Shown in pieces: positions 3 through 54,606 of a stretch of 64,000 nt of DNA. Both the position numbers and the translations under genes were made by a program. The notes beneath the pieces are model-generated. The model had not been told where the DNA came from, did no database searches, and saw only the letters and a program-made list of their open reading frames with translations. The stretch is from Patescibacteria group bacterium (lineage in GTDB: Bacteria; Patescibacteriota; Patescibacteriia; UBA1558; GWA2-36-10), in assembly GCA_041662585.1 (NCBI GenBank), contig JBAZSG010000002.1:13588-77587 (forward strand). Direction: 5' to 3'. How positions within the stretch are numbered: position 1 is the first letter of the stretch; every line of letters starts with the position of its first letter.

Positions 3-1493
3 CGTCAGGCCGAACGAGAATTGAGTATTCCGGCACAGGTCAAGGCGTGTCAAAAATATGGAATGGATCACAATTGGACTCTTGCACCGGATGGCATCTA
101 CGAAGAAAAGGGCGAATCGGCAAGAACCACCGATCGTCCACAGCTTCAAAAAATGCTTCACAGGTCAAAATCCGACACAAAAATTGATGTTATTTTGATG
201 CACAAGCTTGATCGTATGTGTCGCAATGTCGCCGATTATGCGGCGATCAAAATGATGCTTAAAAAACATGATGTTAGGTTGATCTCAGTGGTTGAGCAAT
301 TCGACGAGTCCTTCTCTGGAGAGCTAGTCGAAAACATTATGTCGTCAATTGCTCAATGGACATCTCAAAACATCAGCTGGGAGGTCAGGAAGGGTCTTAA
401 AGAGGCCGTAGAGCGTGGTCGGTTCCCGGGATACGCACCAATTGGGTATACGAACGATAAAAAAACCAAGTCTCTCATTATCGATAACATTCGGGCCCCT
501 TATATAAAACTGGCTTTTGAACTATATGCCACCGGCAAGTATTCGTATGATTCTCTGTCTGCCGATCTTAATAAGCGAGGTCTAAAAAGCAAATCAGGCA
601 AACATGTTAATCGCAAATCAATTGAGCATTTTCTCTGTAATCCAATTTACTATGGTCTTATAAAAACTCGATCGGCCACCTGTCAGGCAAACTTTCCACC
701 CTTAATCTCTAAAAAGCTTTTTGATGATGTTCAGGAGGTAGTCCAACAGCACAATCATTATGCTGATCGTACTCGCAAGCACTCATATCCTATGGCAGGG
801 TTCATGAGATGTGCTGTGTGTGGGTCTACACTTTGCGGACAGATGCAAAAGGGTCATCTTTACTATTCTTGTACTCACTGGCAAGACAAAAACTGCACAG
901 AACGCAAATATATGCGATGGGAGGTTGTTGAGGAACAGGTCGCTAACCAGTTATCACGGGTTCATCTACCTGATAAGTTTAAGAAGGTACTTGATTCTTA
1001 CTTTCAATATTTTGCCAAAGAAAGGCTCGAACAAGAAGACAAAGAACGCAAGAGTCTCAAGCGTGAGCTTATAAGAGTTCAACAACAGATTCGCAACATT
1101 GTCGTGGATCGTTCTAAGCGTATCATTGACGCAGATGTCTTTATAAAGATTCAGGATGAGCTTTTAAAGGAGAAGGAAATGTATCAGGATCGCTTGGGGG
1201 TACTTGAGGGCAAGTCTGACAAATTCGTGCAGAAATTTAATGAGTTGCTGGACTTCACGGATCATGCCGACAAGGTGTTCAACACCAGCTCAATGCATCA
1301 AAAACGCACACTGATGAAGCTTTGTTTTGAGGGATTCACTGTCAGTAATCAAAAACTGACGCCGATATGGACGCCAGTCTTTGATGTTCTTATGGATTTG
1401 CAAGTTTCCAAACTCGAACCACCGAAACCGTCAAAGGACTTAAAAACCCTTGCAGTTTCTAAAGTTCAAAGTTGGAAATCTGGCGGAGAGTAA
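3..1493 (+). CDS. Large serine recombinase (resolvase/invertase N-terminal domain plus recombinase and zinc-ribbon region), 5'-partial at the window edge
   Basis: The reading frame is open from nt 3. The sequence SIPAQ...DRPQLQKMLH...IDVILMHKLDRMCRN matches the serine-recombinase catalytic domain (S..Q core and DR.P.L motif), and about 350 aa of recombinase/Cys-rich region follow (CAVCG...YYSC). The stop codon overlaps the 3' end of the minus-strand tRNA-Ser. Confidence 0.8.
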   Translation, partial: RQAERELSIPAQVKACQKYGMDHNWTLAPDGIYEEKGESARTTDRPQLQKMLHRSKSDTKIDVILMHKLDRMCRNVADYAAIKMMLKKHDVRLISVVEQFDESFSGELVENIMSSIAQWTSQNISWEVRKGLKEAVERGRFPGYAPIGYTNDKKTKSLIIDNIRAPYIKLAFELYATGKYSYDSLSADLNKRGLKSKSGKHVNRKSIEHFLCNPIYYGLIKTRSATCQANFPPLISKKLFDDVQEVVQQHNHYADRTRKHSYPMAGFMRCAVCGSTLCGQMQKGHLYYSCTHWQDKNCTERKYMRWEVVEEQVANQLSRVHLPDKFKKVLDSYFQYFAKERLEQEDKERKSLKRELIRVQQQIRNIVVDRSKRIIDADVFIKIQDELLKEKEMYQDRLGVLEGKSDKFVQKFNELLDFTDHADKVFNTSSMHQKRTLMKLCFEGFTVSNQKLTPIWTPVFDVLMDLQVSKLEPPKPSKDLKTLAVSKVQSWKSGGE

Positions 1494-1570
1494 GGGATTC
1501 GAACCCTTGAAAGCTTTTACACTTTACCCGCTTTCCAAGCGAGCGCACTCGACCACTATGCGAACTCTCC
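1481..1570 (-). tRNA. tRNA-Ser (anticodon GGA), long variable arm, encoded CCA
   Basis: The reverse complement reads GGAGAGTTCGCATAGTGGTCGAGTGCGCTCGCTTGGAAAGCGGG...AAGGGTTCGAATCCCTTACTCTCCGCCA. It has a 7-bp acceptor stem, a T-loop GGTTCGAATCC, an anticodon loop TTGGAAA (GGA) and a long variable arm; length is 90 nt. Confidence 0.85.
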
Positions 1571-1940: not shown

Positions 1941-1996
1941 TTTCTTAGCCACCCCCGCGTAGCGGGGTCCCGCTTCGCGGGATATGCGAACTCTCC
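1941..1996. repeat. 56-bp direct repeat, copy 2
   Basis: Matches 1627-1682 with one mismatch. It lies immediately upstream of the GIY-YIG start codon on the minus strand. Confidence 0.8.
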
Positions 1997-3099: not shown

Positions 3100-5505
<2,406 letters not shown>

Positions 5506-5556
5506 ATTTTCTTTATTTACCAGCGCCTTTGGCGTGGTCCCGCTTGGCGGGATAAA

Positions 5557-5865
5557 TTAAAATTTTAGTTTCTTGGCATATCTACCCAAAAATGGCATTT
5601 CCCAAAAACTACCATTAAGAGCATTGATTACTCCTAGTATTGCCAGTAGCATTACCAAAAGAGCCAAAGCCCAGCCAATAATTGGCACAGGAAAAAACCA
5701 ACCAAACAATAGCTCTACAGCAAACAAGAGCAAGCCTTGCTTGGCGTGGAATTGAGCTAATTTGGATTTTCTTTTAAATAGCAATGGTATTAGACATAGT
5801 GCCCAAACATAAGACAAGGCAGCCATGGTACCATTTGCTTCTAAATCTTTTTTATCTACTTCCAT
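5557..5865 (-). CDS. DUF4870-family small membrane protein
   Basis: 102 aa. ALSYVWALCLIPLLFKR...FHAKQGLLLF matches the DUF4870 pattern, with 2-3 transmembrane helices. Confidence 0.55.
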   Translation of the reverse strand: MEVDKKDLEANGTMAALSYVWALCLIPLLFKRKSKLAQFHAKQGLLLFAVELLFGWFFPVPIIGWALALLVMLLAILGVINALNGSFWEMPFLGRYAKKLKF

Positions 5866-50169: not shown

Positions 50170-50637
50170 ATGAACTACAAACACACTCAAATTGGATATC
50201 TGATGATAATTATTACCTTGGCTATGCTGATATTTTTTGCTTGGCTTTATGCTACTAGTGCCGCTGAGCCTGAGTCAGTCGACTCTGGTACAAACTTGGC
50301 CGTTACTAGCGTTATGATATTAATTCTGTGTATTCTTGTTTCTTTTTGTTCACTAAAAGTAACTATTGATGAAAAATATTTGTATATCAAATTTGGCTAT
50401 GGTATTTATAAAAAAAAGTTTTTGCTCAGTGACATACTATCTACCAAAAACGTAAAAAATCATTGGTATTATGGCTGGGGTATACGGTTGTGGTTTTGGC
50501 CCAAGATGTGGATTTATAATATTTCTGGTTTTGACGCGATTGAAATTCAGATGAAGAACGGTAAAATCTACCGAATCGGAACAGATGAGCCAGAAAAGCT
50601 TGAAACTGCAATCAAAAAGAAAAAGAGCAGTTTATAG
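50170..50637 (+). CDS. Bacterial PH-domain (bPH_2/YdbS-like) membrane protein
   Basis: Two N-terminal transmembrane helices followed by a domain of about 90 aa: LKVTIDEKYLYIKFGYGIYKKKFLLSDI...IEIQMKNGKIYRIGTDEPEKL. The 3' end (KKKKSSL*) runs into repeat R1. Confidence 0.45.
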   Translation: MNYKHTQIGYLMIIITLAMLIFFAWLYATSAAEPESVDSGTNLAVTSVMILILCILVSFCSLKVTIDEKYLYIKFGYGIYKKKFLLSDILSTKNVKNHWYYGWGIRLWFWPKMWIYNISGFDAIEIQMKNGKIYRIGTDEPEKLETAIKKKKSSL

Positions 50638-50729
50638 ACATGCTCTTAGGGTCTGGGTTGCGTTTCAACGCAGGAACAATGACACCAACATTGGGATGGC
50701 AATCAATATGAACATAACTGTGTAAGACA
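50614..50729. repeat. Boundary repeat R1, copy 1 (terminator plus 3' coding end of the minus-strand membrane gene)
   Basis: About 90% identical to 52273-52388 (aaaaagaaaaagagcagtttatagacRtgctcttagggtctgggttgcgt.t.a.cgcaggaacaatgacaccaa...aacataactgtgtaagaca). Confidence 0.8.
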
Positions 50730-51243
50730 GGCGTAGGAGATTTTTATTAACCTCCCTCAAAATAATTCCGTAGCCAGTTTCCTTGTTGATGCCAAGTTCA
50801 TCATCAATACCAAGAAATAAACAAACGAAAAAAATGCCAAAGACAAAGACAACGACTACAGGGACATCCATGTGGCTAACAATAATGAAATATATGAAGG
50901 AAAAAACCATGACACTGTAAAAGGCAGCGGCAAAGGCAGATAAAAAACCAGAAGTAACCTCTTCTACCAGGCGATTCTTCAAAGCCAACCGACACATCTT
51001 CAAAGCCAAGAAAAAACAGCAAGGATACAGAGCTAAAAACGCTATCGCTACAGTAATGGCAATGGCATCATCCCAATTATCTGTCAAAGACAGGGCGATA
51101 AAATACACTGATAGCGTGACCACCGTGGCAATCAGTTGCCACTTCCCCAGTTTATCCCACCACAGAGGCAATTGGGGTCTAGCTGTTTTCTCCCACCACA
51201 AGAATAATGGGGACAATTGAAACGTCATCGTCAACCTCCTCAC
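50665..51243 (-). CDS. Polytopic membrane protein, paralog A1 (192 aa) with Trp-rich N-terminus
   Basis: MRRLTMTFQLSPLFLWWEKTARPQLPLWW... The N-terminal 60 aa and C-terminal 20 aa are near-identical to 52324-52854; the middle differs. A strong RBS (GGAGG) is present. Confidence 0.6.
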   Translation of the reverse strand: MRRLTMTFQLSPLFLWWEKTARPQLPLWWDKLGKWQLIATVVTLSVYFIALSLTDNWDDAIAITVAIAFLALYPCCFFLALKMCRLALKNRLVEEVTSGFLSAFAAAFYSVMVFSFIYFIIVSHMDVPVVVVFVFGIFFVCLFLGIDDELGINKETGYGIILREVNKNLLRLSYTVMFILIAIPMLVSLFLR

Positions 51244-51313
51244 ACAATATAATTAAAGTACAATTAATTTAATAAAACATATTAACACGCTGCTACACTA
51301 CTGTCAATATAAT
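51048..51313. repeat. Boundary repeat R2, copy 1 (5' coding end of the membrane gene plus promoter/5'UTR)
   Basis: Near-identical to about 52659-52920. The minus strand carries TTGACA (51307-51302) - 17 nt - TAATAT (51284-51279) and RBS GGAGG. Confidence 0.8.
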
Positions 51314-51353
51314 ACCTATAAAAAAACATTACCCCTAGTACTAATAATAAATT

Positions 51354-51905
51354 ATGAATAACGAAAATAATTTTTCTCAAAATATTGAACAGCCAGAACA
51401 ATGGCCCAAAAAAATTTCTGTCCAGTTTGATCAAAACCATTTTGACGGCCAAGAAATTGATAAAAAAGCCGTAGATTATCAAAAAGACTCTGGAAACAGC
51501 TGGTTACCAGGATCACTAAATAACTGGTGGAAAAAAATTTGTTTAGAGAACGAGCCAGAAGTTTCTGCTGAAGAACTAGGAGAAATTATTTATTATTTGA
51601 TAGAAGTAGCCAGAAATGCTATAGAAAAAGTCGGCAGTGGTGAAATCGAGGTTATTTTTGATAAAAATAAAATTACCTTTGTGGTAACTGATCAAGGAGT
51701 GGGATTTGAAAATCCACTCCAACAAATCAAACCCAAACACGGCTTATATGAAGTGCGTGGTTATGCTGATGAGTTTACAATTGAAACCAATGGAAAAAAA
51801 TACACCAAAATACCCAATAGCTTAAATCTTGATCAATCGGAAGAAACCGATGTCATACAAGGTTCTCGTATAACTTTTACAAAAAATTATGATGAGAAAA
51901 AATAG
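51354..51905 (+). CDS. GHKL/HATPase_c-like ATP-binding protein (RsbW/SpoIIAB-type serine-kinase-like)
   Basis: EIIYYLIEVARNAIEKVGSGEIEVIF...ITFVVTDQGVGF: N-box and G1-box-like pattern of the histidine-kinase-like ATPase fold. 183 aa. Confidence 0.45.
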   Translation: MNNENNFSQNIEQPEQWPKKISVQFDQNHFDGQEIDKKAVDYQKDSGNSWLPGSLNNWWKKICLENEPEVSAEELGEIIYYLIEVARNAIEKVGSGEIEVIFDKNKITFVVTDQGVGFENPLQQIKPKHGLYEVRGYADEFTIETNGKKYTKIPNSLNLDQSEETDVIQGSRITFTKNYDEKK

Positions 51906-51925
51906 CTAAATATTATTTTATCATT

Positions 51926-52210
51926 ATGAAACATCAAAATATAGTCCGTATTGCTATCATTGTAGGGTTGATTTTACTCGTACCTCTGATAGCTATGCAA
52001 TTTACAGAAGAAGTAAACTGGAGTTTAACAGACTTTGTTGTTATGGGTGCACTCCTATTTGGTACTGGTCTTGGCATTAACTTTGCCTTAAACAAACTTT
52101 CCAATCCAGAATATCGAGTTATCGTTGTTACTATTATCGTGCTAATTTTTTTGTTGATTTGGGTGGAACTGGCAGTTGGAATATTTAATACACCATTTGC
52201 CGGAAGCTAA
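51926..52210 (+). CDS. Small membrane protein (94 aa, 3 transmembrane helices)
   Basis: ORF with hydrophobic helices. It is followed by repeat R3. Confidence 0.4.
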   Translation: MKHQNIVRIAIIVGLILLVPLIAMQFTEEVNWSLTDFVVMGALLFGTGLGINFALNKLSNPEYRVIVVTIIVLIFLLIWVELAVGIFNTPFAGS

Positions 52211-52211
52211 T

Positions 52212-52250
52212 ATAATTAAATAAATTTTTTAATTTAAAATATAAACACCG
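52212..52250. repeat. Boundary repeat R3, copy 1 (taaataaattttttaatttaaaatataaacacc)
   Basis: About 90% identical to 53863-53900, in each case immediately after the last plus-strand gene of a unit. Confidence 0.7.
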
Positions 52251-52272
52251 TAGGCGATATTCCATTTTAGAT

Positions 52273-52388
52273 AAAAAGAAAAAGAGCAGTTTATAGACGT
52301 GCTCTTAGGGTCTGGGTTGCGTCTCAGCGCAGGAACAATGACACCAATATTGGTATTGAGATTGACATGAACATAACTGTGTAAGACA
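52273..52388. repeat. Boundary repeat R1, copy 2
   Basis: See R1 copy 1. It retains about 25 nt matching the 3' end of the 50170-50637 gene, although that gene is absent from this unit. Confidence 0.8.
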
Positions 52389-52854
52389 ATCTCAGAAGGT
52401 TTCTATCAATCTCACTCGCAATCATTCCATAGCTAGTGGCGTCTCCGCTAAGACCCGTAAAAATGCCCTCGCTGTAAATAACCACAATAAGAAAAATGGA
52501 TAGAATGACCAAAATGACATCAATACCTTTATAAATGGCTCGCCCAATATACAAAACAATCGCGACATTGCAAAAGACAACAAAAAAGACAGAGAAAGAA
52601 CTCAAAACATTGCCCCTCCAGAAGGCAAAACAAATATCCATAGAAAAACCCACTATCGCTGCCGTAATGCCAATGGCATACCACCAATTGTCTGTCAAAG
52701 ACAGACTTATAAAAAATCCGAGTAGCGTGACCACTATGGCAATCAGTTGCCACTTACCCAACTTAGCCCACCACAGAGGCAATTGAGGCCTAGCTGTTTT
52801 CTCCCACCACAAGAATAATGGGGACAATTGAAATGTCATCGTCAACCTCCTCAT
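52324..52854 (-). CDS. Polytopic membrane protein, paralog A2 (176 aa)
   Basis: Same N-terminus (MRRLTMTFQLSPLFLWWEKTARPQLPLWWAKLGKWQLIA) and C-terminus (NLLRLSYTVMF...VSLFLR) as A1, with a divergent core. Confidence 0.6.
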   Translation of the reverse strand: MRRLTMTFQLSPLFLWWEKTARPQLPLWWAKLGKWQLIAIVVTLLGFFISLSLTDNWWYAIGITAAIVGFSMDICFAFWRGNVLSSFSVFFVVFCNVAIVLYIGRAIYKGIDVILVILSIFLIVVIYSEGIFTGLSGDATSYGMIASEIDRNLLRLSYTVMFMSISIPILVSLFLR

Positions 52855-52920
52855 ACAATATAATTAAAGTACTATTAATTTAATAAAACATATTAACACG
52901 CTGCTACACTACTGTCAATG
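52659..52920. repeat. Boundary repeat R2, copy 2 (includes minus-strand promoter TTGACA-17-TAATAT at 52918-52890)
   Basis: See R2 copy 1. Confidence 0.8.
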
Positions 52921-53835: not shown

Positions 53836-53862
53836 CCTATGGAAGATAACAAAAAAATCTAT

Positions 53863-53900
53863 ATAACTAAATAAATTTTTTAATTTAAATTATAAAAACC
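53863..53900. repeat. Boundary repeat R3, copy 2
   Basis: See R3 copy 1. Confidence 0.7.
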
Positions 53901-53949: not shown

Positions 53950-54267
53950 CTATACAAATCGACTAGCAAAAAATATAGCTGTAGCCAGACCGATAAACCA
54001 AAGCAGTGCCGACGCTACTGATTGGCCAAATTTTTTGCGCCGACTAGACACTTCGCTTCTACCAAGAACTCTTTTGTTCTTTGAGGCAAAACTAGTGCCT
54101 TCACCACTGTTTAGTGTGAATATATGAAGTGGTGGTTTTTTGAGTCTTTCTTGTTGGCCATTATACTTTAATGGTCTTTTGGTTTTTATGGCTACCAACA
54201 CAAACAAAGCCAAAAGGCCAAAAATAATGGCTATAGCTTGAAAGTCCATACCTGCAAAAAACTTCAT
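53950..54267 (-). CDS. Small 2-transmembrane-helix membrane protein (105 aa)
   Basis: ORF with two hydrophobic helices and a basic central loop. About 330 bp of unusually GC-rich noncoding DNA lies upstream. Confidence 0.4.
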   Translation of the reverse strand: MKFFAGMDFQAIAIIFGLLALFVLVAIKTKRPLKYNGQQERLKKPPLHIFTLNSGEGTSFASKNKRVLGRSEVSSRRKKFGQSVASALLWFIGLATAIFFASRFV

Positions 54268-54606
54268 AAACGTTCCTTTCTTTTTTGCTGGTTAGTGGTA
54301 TGAAAAAGAACTTAAGTTACAAAAAAATACCTCTCCAGGCATTTTTGTAAATCAAGCTCATAATATGAGTTTTATCTACACAACGCCGGTTACGCTACTA
54401 GCTCCAAACTGTCCAAGCGTCCAAATACAGACAGTCCTTCATCGCCTCATTGAATGATATTTAATGTAATCAATAATAACTTAACATAAATATTTTATTT
54501 TGTAAATATTATAAATTTAATGCCCAAAACCAATACTTTTGTTTTTTTATTCATTTTGTTGTATAATATACTTATCTAAAAAATAAAAATCAATTAAAAT
54601 AAAATT

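Follow-up and report, generated by a model that had tools for sequence, protein, structure and literature searches.

In Helicobacter pylori the paralogous proteins BabA, BabB and BabC are almost identical at the N- and C-termini and have a divergent middle, and their genes undergo gene conversion (PMC4552749). A gene pair of similar build is located in the 64,000-nt stretch of DNA from an uncultivated Patescibacteria group bacterium which we analyzed here (contig JBAZSG010000002.1, positions 13,588 to 77,587 of the forward strand). This stretch is called the window, and all coordinates relate to it unless another locus is named. The pair consists of two neighboring minus-strand genes, paralog A and paralog B, and by analogy the bab family appears to be the closest described counterpart of the pattern. 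Both systems comprise complete paralogous loci with near-identical 5' and 3' ends and a divergent middle, and intragenomic recombination between the ends would be possible in the window as well. In contrast, BabA, BabB and BabC are large adhesins of the outer membrane, and the part that varies, the middle, is their exposed binding domain, whereas the window proteins are predicted inner-membrane helix bundles of 171 to 187 aa with a membrane-embedded variable part. Moreover, conversion of bab is documented by chimeras, whereas it is unproven for the window pair, in which the synonymous sites of the coding ends have diverged, and the identity in the window runs through promoter and terminator. 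In the opa genes of Neisseria and the vlp genes of Mycoplasma, several complete loci each have a conserved promoter and 5' region and a common framework around variable segments; surface-exposed loops or repeats vary, and simple-sequence repeats cause phase variation. The window pair has neither such repeats nor an exposed domain and comprises two copies only. As outlined below, we consider it probable that A and B arose by an old duplication within an unannotated membrane-protein family of Patescibacteria, in which ends and flanks are constrained and the transmembrane core decays fast.

Paralog A (50665-51228, minus strand) codes for 187 aa plus stop codon and paralog B (52324-52839, minus strand) for 171 aa plus stop codon; both are predicted membrane proteins with five transmembrane (TM) helices and are listed at NCBI as WCS88_02140 and WCS88_02155. 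The proteins are 88% identical over residues 1-52 and 75% identical over the last 28 residues, in agreement with the near-identical termini described in the original prediction, which had been made from the DNA letters. At the DNA level the similarity forms a 5' repeat of 300 nt with 86% identity (51009-51308 and 52620-52919) and a 3' repeat of 165 nt with 84% identity (50614-50778 and 52273-52437). Each repeat contains a near-identical block. The 5' block (51156-51307 in A, 52767-52918 in B, minus strand) extends from -79 to +73 and has 5 differences in 153 nt. Over its 75 nt the 3' block (50614-50688 in A, 52273-52347 in B, minus strand) differs at 3 positions; it comprises the last 7 codons, a hairpin around the stop codon and the terminator. 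The divergent core of A (50779-51042, minus strand) corresponds to residues 63-150 (88 aa), which run from the end of TM2 through a cytoplasmic loop into TM3 and TM4, and that of B (52438-52653, minus strand) to residues 63-134 (72 aa). A comparison of the two core proteins revealed no excess over composition-matched shuffles (z of 1.2 for global and 1.5 for local alignment) and zero BLASTP matches, and the similarity of the core DNA was also within the shuffled range (z 1.5). Thus the description of the cores as unrelated yet hydrophobic held in statistical terms.

The terminal identity turned out to be part of a larger shared unit which reaches past the coding sequence on both sides. The DNA alignment demonstrated that this unit is exactly one transcription unit, from the first T of the -35 hexamer to the last T of the terminator. 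Its outer edges are sharp: 15 nt are enough for identity to drop from 93-100% down to some 45%. The promoter-like sites of A (51279-51307, minus strand) and B (52890-52918, minus strand) are identical and consist of TTGACA, a 17-nt spacer and a TG-extended TAATAT, so that the predicted TTGACA-17-TAATAT site and GGAGG ribosome-binding site were found at both genes. The pattern TTGACA-N14-TGnTAnnnT has three matches in the 64 kb, compared with 0.07 expected, and two of the three are these promoter sites. Judged from sequence, both units are probably strongly expressed and the protein is probably abundant. The 5' untranslated regions (5'UTRs; 51229-51278 in A, 52840-52889 in B, minus strand) contain the GGAGG at 51235-51239 and 52846-52850. 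An N-terminal prefix MRRLT, assigned to the proteins in the original prediction, includes this ribosome-binding site, and the starts were therefore moved to the ATG codons at 51228 and 52839 (MTFQL...), located 6 nt downstream of GGAGG; the resulting lengths match the NCBI annotation. Within the 79 nt from the -35 hexamer to the ATG (51229-51307 in A), 2 positions differ from B. The fold stability of the 5'UTR together with the early coding region was ordinary (z -0.2).

At the 3' end, the stop codon of A lies in the loop of a hairpin (50659-50672, minus strand; TGCGT-TGAA-ACGCA), and the equivalent hairpin of B is located at 52318-52331 (minus strand). The intrinsic terminator of A (50614-50647, minus strand) has a 7-bp stem (AAGAGCA/TGCTCTT), an 11-nt loop and a T-run, and that of B (52273-52306, minus strand) shows the same stem and loop architecture. 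At positions 50614-50640 (plus strand) the terminator of A overlaps the final codons and the stop codon of a convergent plus-strand open reading frame (ORF; 50170-50637, ...KKKKSSL*), and it may therefore act in both directions. The same terminator sequence is present beside B (52273-52299, plus strand), where no plus-strand ORF terminates.

The synonymous sites give information about the age of the coding ends. The codon differs at 16 of 59 positions with an identical residue (27%; saturation would give about 60%), and the synonymous divergence (dS) according to Nei-Gojobori is 0.45 in the first 52 codons and reaches 0.78 in the 28 C-terminal ones. The ratio of non-synonymous to synonymous divergence (dN/dS) is 0.07 at the N-terminus and 0.18 at the C-terminus. 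Because of this synonymous divergence and the low dN/dS, the coding ends appear to be old and maintained by purifying selection on the protein and not recently shared, so that a recent common ancestry of these ends is not supported.

The inner edges of the similarity are steps. At the 5' end, the 3.3% difference of the near-identical block (-79 to +73) is followed by 39 differences in 149 nt (26%), and at the 3' end 28 differences in 97 nt (29%) are followed by 4% over the last 75 nt. For the 5' block a change-point was located at alignment column 186 with a log-likelihood ratio of 17.7, a value reached by none of 1000 permutations. A nucleotide-level breakpoint test had been proposed for the pair; it confirmed the step-like edges and did not reveal a single clean junction. 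Such steps, cores without significant protein or DNA similarity, and near-identical flanks next to coding sequence with a dS of 0.45 to 0.78 would fit a segmental recombination, in which a recent duplication of the whole unit was followed by replacement of the interior from a divergent allele of another strain or species, with the conserved ends as anchors. On the other hand, the steps coincide with the onset of amino-acid differences, and the synonymous contrast within the 5' coding sequence alone (1 of 13 codons, then 7 of 26) is not significant (p = 0.23). Furthermore, the window contains no donor copy, integrase or reverse transcriptase, and the available assemblies are identical, hence no chimeras are on view. 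Considering also the family pattern described below, we regard this origin as unlikely.

Synonymous differences increase from the outer edges inward at both ends (1/13 and then 7/26 codons at the 5' end; 7/13 and then 1/7 in the order of transcription at the 3' end). This increase, the presence of direct repeats of 153 and 75 nt with 96-97% identity at a distance of 1.6 kb, and non-coding flanks which are far more alike than the synonymous sites would agree with a concerted evolution, in which the ends of ancient paralogs were homogenized mainly by repeated intragenomic gene conversion and the cores were too divergent to pair. However, identity peaks at the outer edges of the homology, where conversion tracts should be rarest, and the coding ends have not been homogenized at their synonymous sites. 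Together with the conservation of the 3' flank in other species (see below), this makes concerted evolution as the main cause improbable.

The proteins belong to a family without a name. A two-sequence profile of A and B was searched exhaustively with HMMER against 1.84 billion representatives and revealed six weak, clearly related proteins; with iterated searches and contig scans about 20 family members were found in total. Every member with a taxonomic name is from Patescibacteria, all relatives are single copy and none is annotated. In the following, L001 to L005 and L010 to L012 denote loci of family relatives in other contigs and genomes. Scans for the family detected only four loci in genome contigs and three in metagenome contigs, all of them single-copy, and no member in viral contigs. 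Scanning metagenome contigs with N-terminal peptides for close relatives retrieved none. A word-indexed protein search with one query sequence returned only A and B themselves, and Pfam, NCBIfam, PHROGs and PADLOC yielded no significant family for A, B or the homologues. Exact look-ups of the window proteins gave either nothing or the same genome at 100% identity, and an independent assembly from the European Nucleotide Archive covering 20.5 kb is 100% identical to this part of the window.

The family is characterized by two conserved modules, which are both present in A and B. The N-module [WYF]WxK[LM]G[KR]WQ is followed directly by TM1 and then by T-G-D/N; in an alignment of eight sequences W24, K26, G28, W30 and Q31 are invariant. 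The C-module consists of a basic loop (e.g. KKYGIRKR) and the last TM helix with the pattern W/R-L/F-S-x-x-A/V-E-F-x-x-I-x-x-P, in which S, F and I are invariant. Between the modules the proteins are hydrophobic, often rich in Ala, Val and Phe, of variable length, and unalignable between any two distant members; the shortest protein has 97 aa in total and the longest 187 aa. Within the family, duplication was seen for the window copies only. In both of them the otherwise conserved Glu of the last TM helix is replaced by Met (AEF to VMF). They also have a lineage-specific N-terminal extension of 13 residues that repeats the WW motif (LFLWWEK and LPLWWDK). This internal duplication of the Trp motif covers residues 8-26, PLFLWWEKTARPQ in A and LPLWWDKLGKWQ in B (within 51156-51228 and 52767-52839, minus strand), and occurs in no other member.

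Conserved ends with an unalignable middle are therefore a trait of the whole family and are also seen between single-copy orthologues. A BLASTN comparison of the orthologues L001 and L002 from different genomes detected only the region from -180 to +60 (71% identity) and the last 100 nt with 130 nt downstream (81.5%); neither the cores nor the wider flanks showed detectable similarity. Since the same pattern is found family-wide in single-copy relatives, the identical ends and the unrelated middle of A and B probably result mainly from uneven constraint and a fast core and not from cassette swapping. The homolog alignments thus speak against segment swapping as the cause proposed in the original prediction, and likewise against a segmental recombination of the type considered above.

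Substitution appears not to be the only process by which the core turns over. The loci L010 and L011, from different assemblies, differ by one single-nucleotide polymorphism in about 620 nt outside of one patch in the core (L010 565-593, L011 396-421), in which about 10 substitutions and a 3-nt indel are concentrated within 27 nt of GCC/GTC/TTC codon repeats. The family gene of L004 contains an internal duplication within its core. Based on these two cases, local rearrangement appears to contribute to core turnover in the family. A far-reaching version of this idea would be that the family represents a gene with a constant frame and a hypervariable membrane core, in which promoter, stop-codon hairpin and terminator of a strongly expressed unit are fixed, host or phage selection on episymbionts drives an active diversification of the core through local repeat-mediated rearrangement or through recombination, and A and B are alternative core alleles exchanging their ends by gene conversion; we consider this version rather doubtful.

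The local change between the near-identical strains of L010 and L011 would also be in line with a core that is diversified in a programmed manner, be it through a diversity-generating retroelement (DGR), a segment of invertible or shufflon type, silent donor cassettes, or slippage at simple sequences as a contingency switch, and a complete DGR is located 1.3-3 kb from the family gene of L004. However, this DGR has its own pair of template repeat (TR) and variable repeat (VR), which is positioned outside of the family gene, upstream of the reverse transcriptase. In the window there is no reverse transcriptase motif, no further copy of a core and no inverted repeat around the cores, Tandem Repeats Finder detected only a hexamer trace of 19 nt (CAAAGA x 3.2) in the window genes, and A and B are both complete genes with their own promoters. 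A programmed mechanism is therefore highly improbable. The DGR of L004 (2833-4726) encodes a reverse transcriptase (3737-4726, RVT_1) and a bAvd-like protein (3394-3831, minus strand). Of the 22 mismatches between its TR (3243-3360) and VR (2833-2950), 21 fall at template adenines, and another gene is targeted. A tyrosine recombinase is encoded at 4963-5862 of the same locus.

Four specific mechanisms of this kind were rejected for A and B. They are not a DGR target, as the window has neither a reverse transcriptase motif nor a third core copy and the DGR of L004 hits a different gene. Variation by an expression site and silent cassettes, as in pilE/pilS or msp2, does not apply, as A and B share promoter, ribosome-binding site, start, stop and terminator and the window contains no further copies. 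An integron cassette was dismissed, as there is no tyrosine recombinase in the window, each unit has a promoter of its own, and genes of the opposite strand lie between the units. The short CAAAGA trace is all that was found of a simple-sequence contingency locus in the window genes.

The regulatory flanks were compared across the family. As in the window, the family gene stands alone behind TTGACA with 17-nt spacing at most homologue loci and a GGAGG-type Shine-Dalgarno (SD) sequence. The stop codon is located in a hairpin loop at eight of nine family loci with differing sequences (A and B of the window, L001, L002, L003, L004, L005 and L012). For eight independent loci the summed stem length of this hairpin is 46, compared with 30.5 +/- 3.4 after shuffling of the 3' side, and none of 2000 shuffles reached the observed value. 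The terminator follows 15-25 nt past the hairpin; its architecture of 7-bp stem and 11-nt loop is kept across the family, three compensatory pairs distinguish the window type from the L001 type, and the sequence of the window terminator including the loop is recognizable in the distant L011. The conservation of hairpin and terminator across species suggests that the non-coding parts of the unit are generally constrained and lends credibility to selection as the reason why the window flanks are 97% identical, at least on the 3' side. It also speaks against concerted evolution, as the 3' flank is kept even in distant single-copy species, where conversion cannot operate. Rfam yielded no match in the flanks of the window or in the untranslated regions of the homologues.

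The 5'UTR of the window differs from that of the family and does not contain the GGCCAATTTCAGGCCATTGG motif of L001, L002, L004 and L005. In these four species the shared motif AGGCCAATTTCAGGCCATTGGT is located at approximately 9950-9975 of L001, 1035-1060 of L002, 5925-5950 of L004 and 5945-5970 of L005. It is predicted to form a weak hairpin only, shows no covariation, has no Rfam match and is absent from the window copies.

The explanation by an old duplication with uneven constraint can be formulated as follows. One monocistronic transcription unit, encoding a small inner-membrane protein, would have been duplicated after the split from L004, with a synonymous divergence of about 0.5-0.8 accumulated since then. 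Selection would act on three targets: the cytoplasmic Trp/Lys-rich N-terminal helix ([WYF]WxKLGKWQ) together with TM1, the basic loop with the last TM helix, and the regulatory flanks with a strong sigma-70-type promoter, SD sequence, stop-codon hairpin and terminator. The central one or three TM helices would need only hydrophobicity, and substitutions, indels and small internal duplications or slippage would render them unalignable. The identity of the non-coding flanks would result from purifying selection on cis-regulatory signals, and short gene-conversion tracts between the direct repeats spaced by 1.6 kb may add to it.

Several observations weigh against this explanation. Only 4 of 130 nt differ between the non-coding flanks, which are about 10 times better kept than the adjacent synonymous sites (Fisher p = 2.8e-6), so that a flank identity of 97% contrasts with the 27% of differing codons at identical residues; recombination or gene conversion is a possible cause of these near-identical flanks. 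In particular, the 5'UTR of the window has neither a cross-species counterpart nor an unusual fold, so that selection may not act on each of its bases and gene conversion may be required for its identity. The rate of core divergence is a further point. According to a simulation, loss of core similarity requires at least 0.8-1.0 substitutions per site at all positions. The observed divergence is compatible with neutral decay at the dS of the C-terminus, but at the N-terminal dS (0.45) a neutral core would remain alignable. Hence a faster than neutral evolution of the core, or a history of its own, may be involved. In the transition zone of codons 53-75 dN/dS is about 1.8, a value based on few sites. 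The patch in L010 and L011 lies in a low-complexity stretch and could be an assembly artefact. Finally, the assemblies on record are identical and show no strain variation.

The genomic surroundings give an indication of the time of duplication. The window is AT-rich and carries the genes for FtsH, S1 and a PilB-type ATPase. L004 is syntenic with it and has gyrase A, S1 and FtsH in common, with FtsH 83% identical. L004 contains one family gene in the order S1, FtsH, family gene, convergent with FtsH, and this arrangement gives the ancestral single-copy position. At the same position of the window three extra plus-strand genes are followed by A, two plus-strand genes, B, two more plus-strand genes and a small riboswitch-controlled gene. 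The extension of 13 residues and the new 5'UTR are common to A and B, which suggests that the duplication is younger than the split from L004. Since the internal duplication of the Trp motif occurs in both copies only, the gene duplication is likely to be later than this lineage-specific extension.

The region contains a further repeat. A 40-nt AT-rich element at 52210-52249 (plus strand) is repeated at 53861-53900 with 93% identity (0 chance matches expected), and each copy is located just past a plus-strand two-gene block. Its spacing of 1651 nt is close to the spacings of the paralog blocks (1611 and 1659 nt). The plus-strand gene pairs between the blocks are not homologous: a weak HATPase-like protein stands opposite an AAA_33 kinase, and the two small proteins are different. 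For this reason a tandem duplication of a three-gene unit of 1.65 kb, which would give three equally spaced blocks, was rejected. The equally spaced element with non-homologous genes in between resembles mosaic-like anchors with variable inserts, as segmental recombination would produce them, and of the remaining observations it hints most at a mosaic recombination here.

The small gene next to this region is an ORF for a membrane protein of 105 aa (53950-54267, minus strand). Upstream of it a c-di-GMP-II riboswitch was identified at 54375-54458 (minus strand; Rfam RF01786, 68.4 bits compared with a gathering threshold of 53.5, E = 3e-13). At a distant position of the window, a GC-rich direct repeat of 56 nt (1627-1682 and 1941-1996, plus strand) with 98% identity stands out from the AT-rich genome and adjoins a tRNA gene (1484-1570, minus strand). 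L004 harbors a GC-rich element with a 12-bp inverted repeat (GATAAGTGGAAA...TTTCCACTTATC) at 1-66 and 1294-1359, which is shared at 86% identity with another Patescibacteria genome (L001, 7375-7489).

Hydropathy and charge predict five TM helices for the window proteins. AlphaFold2, run with the alignment of eight sequences, also gave five helices, with low confidence (pLDDT 61, pTM 0.34). Positive charge is found in the N-terminal Trp/Lys segment and likewise in the loop that precedes the last helix, which argues for a cytoplasmic placement of the two conserved modules. The variable core is predicted to correspond to TM2-TM4 in the window proteins and to a single TM helix in the shortest homologues, with only very short loops outside of the membrane. 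This topology is at odds with the suggestion of a receptor-like or phage-exposed variable surface. An immunity function, which had also been suggested, found no support in a bacteriocin or defence context. The neighborhood of the family gene differs at every locus examined, and no linkage to a bacteriocin, toxin, lysis or defence gene was detected. The candidate roles of bacteriocin immunity protein, holin and defence component were rejected on the basis of missing matches in Pfam, PHROG, NCBIfam and PADLOC, missing conserved linkage and absence from viral contigs. Our best guess is that the product is an abundant inner-membrane protein with three or five passes, in which the first and the last helix together with the cytoplasmic Trp/Lys helix would be the working part.

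Gene duplicates in which the ends are constrained and the middle is free to vary are familiar, and so are paralogs with similar ends; in this respect the phenomenon is ordinary. The case of A and B illustrates that identical ends with an unrelated middle can arise without cassette exchange. Worth noting is a small unannotated family, so far almost exclusively from Patescibacteria, with a conserved Trp/Lys N-terminal helix, a conserved last helix and a hypervariable TM core, whose gene consistently stands alone behind a near-consensus promoter. The stop-codon hairpin and the terminator sequence are kept across species more strongly than synonymous sites, which points to a 3'-end element, and together they may constitute an undescribed regulatory or stability element. 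Should the core indeed prove to undergo active diversification, one could consider the family a candidate determinant of host or phage interaction in organisms that are not yet genetically tractable.

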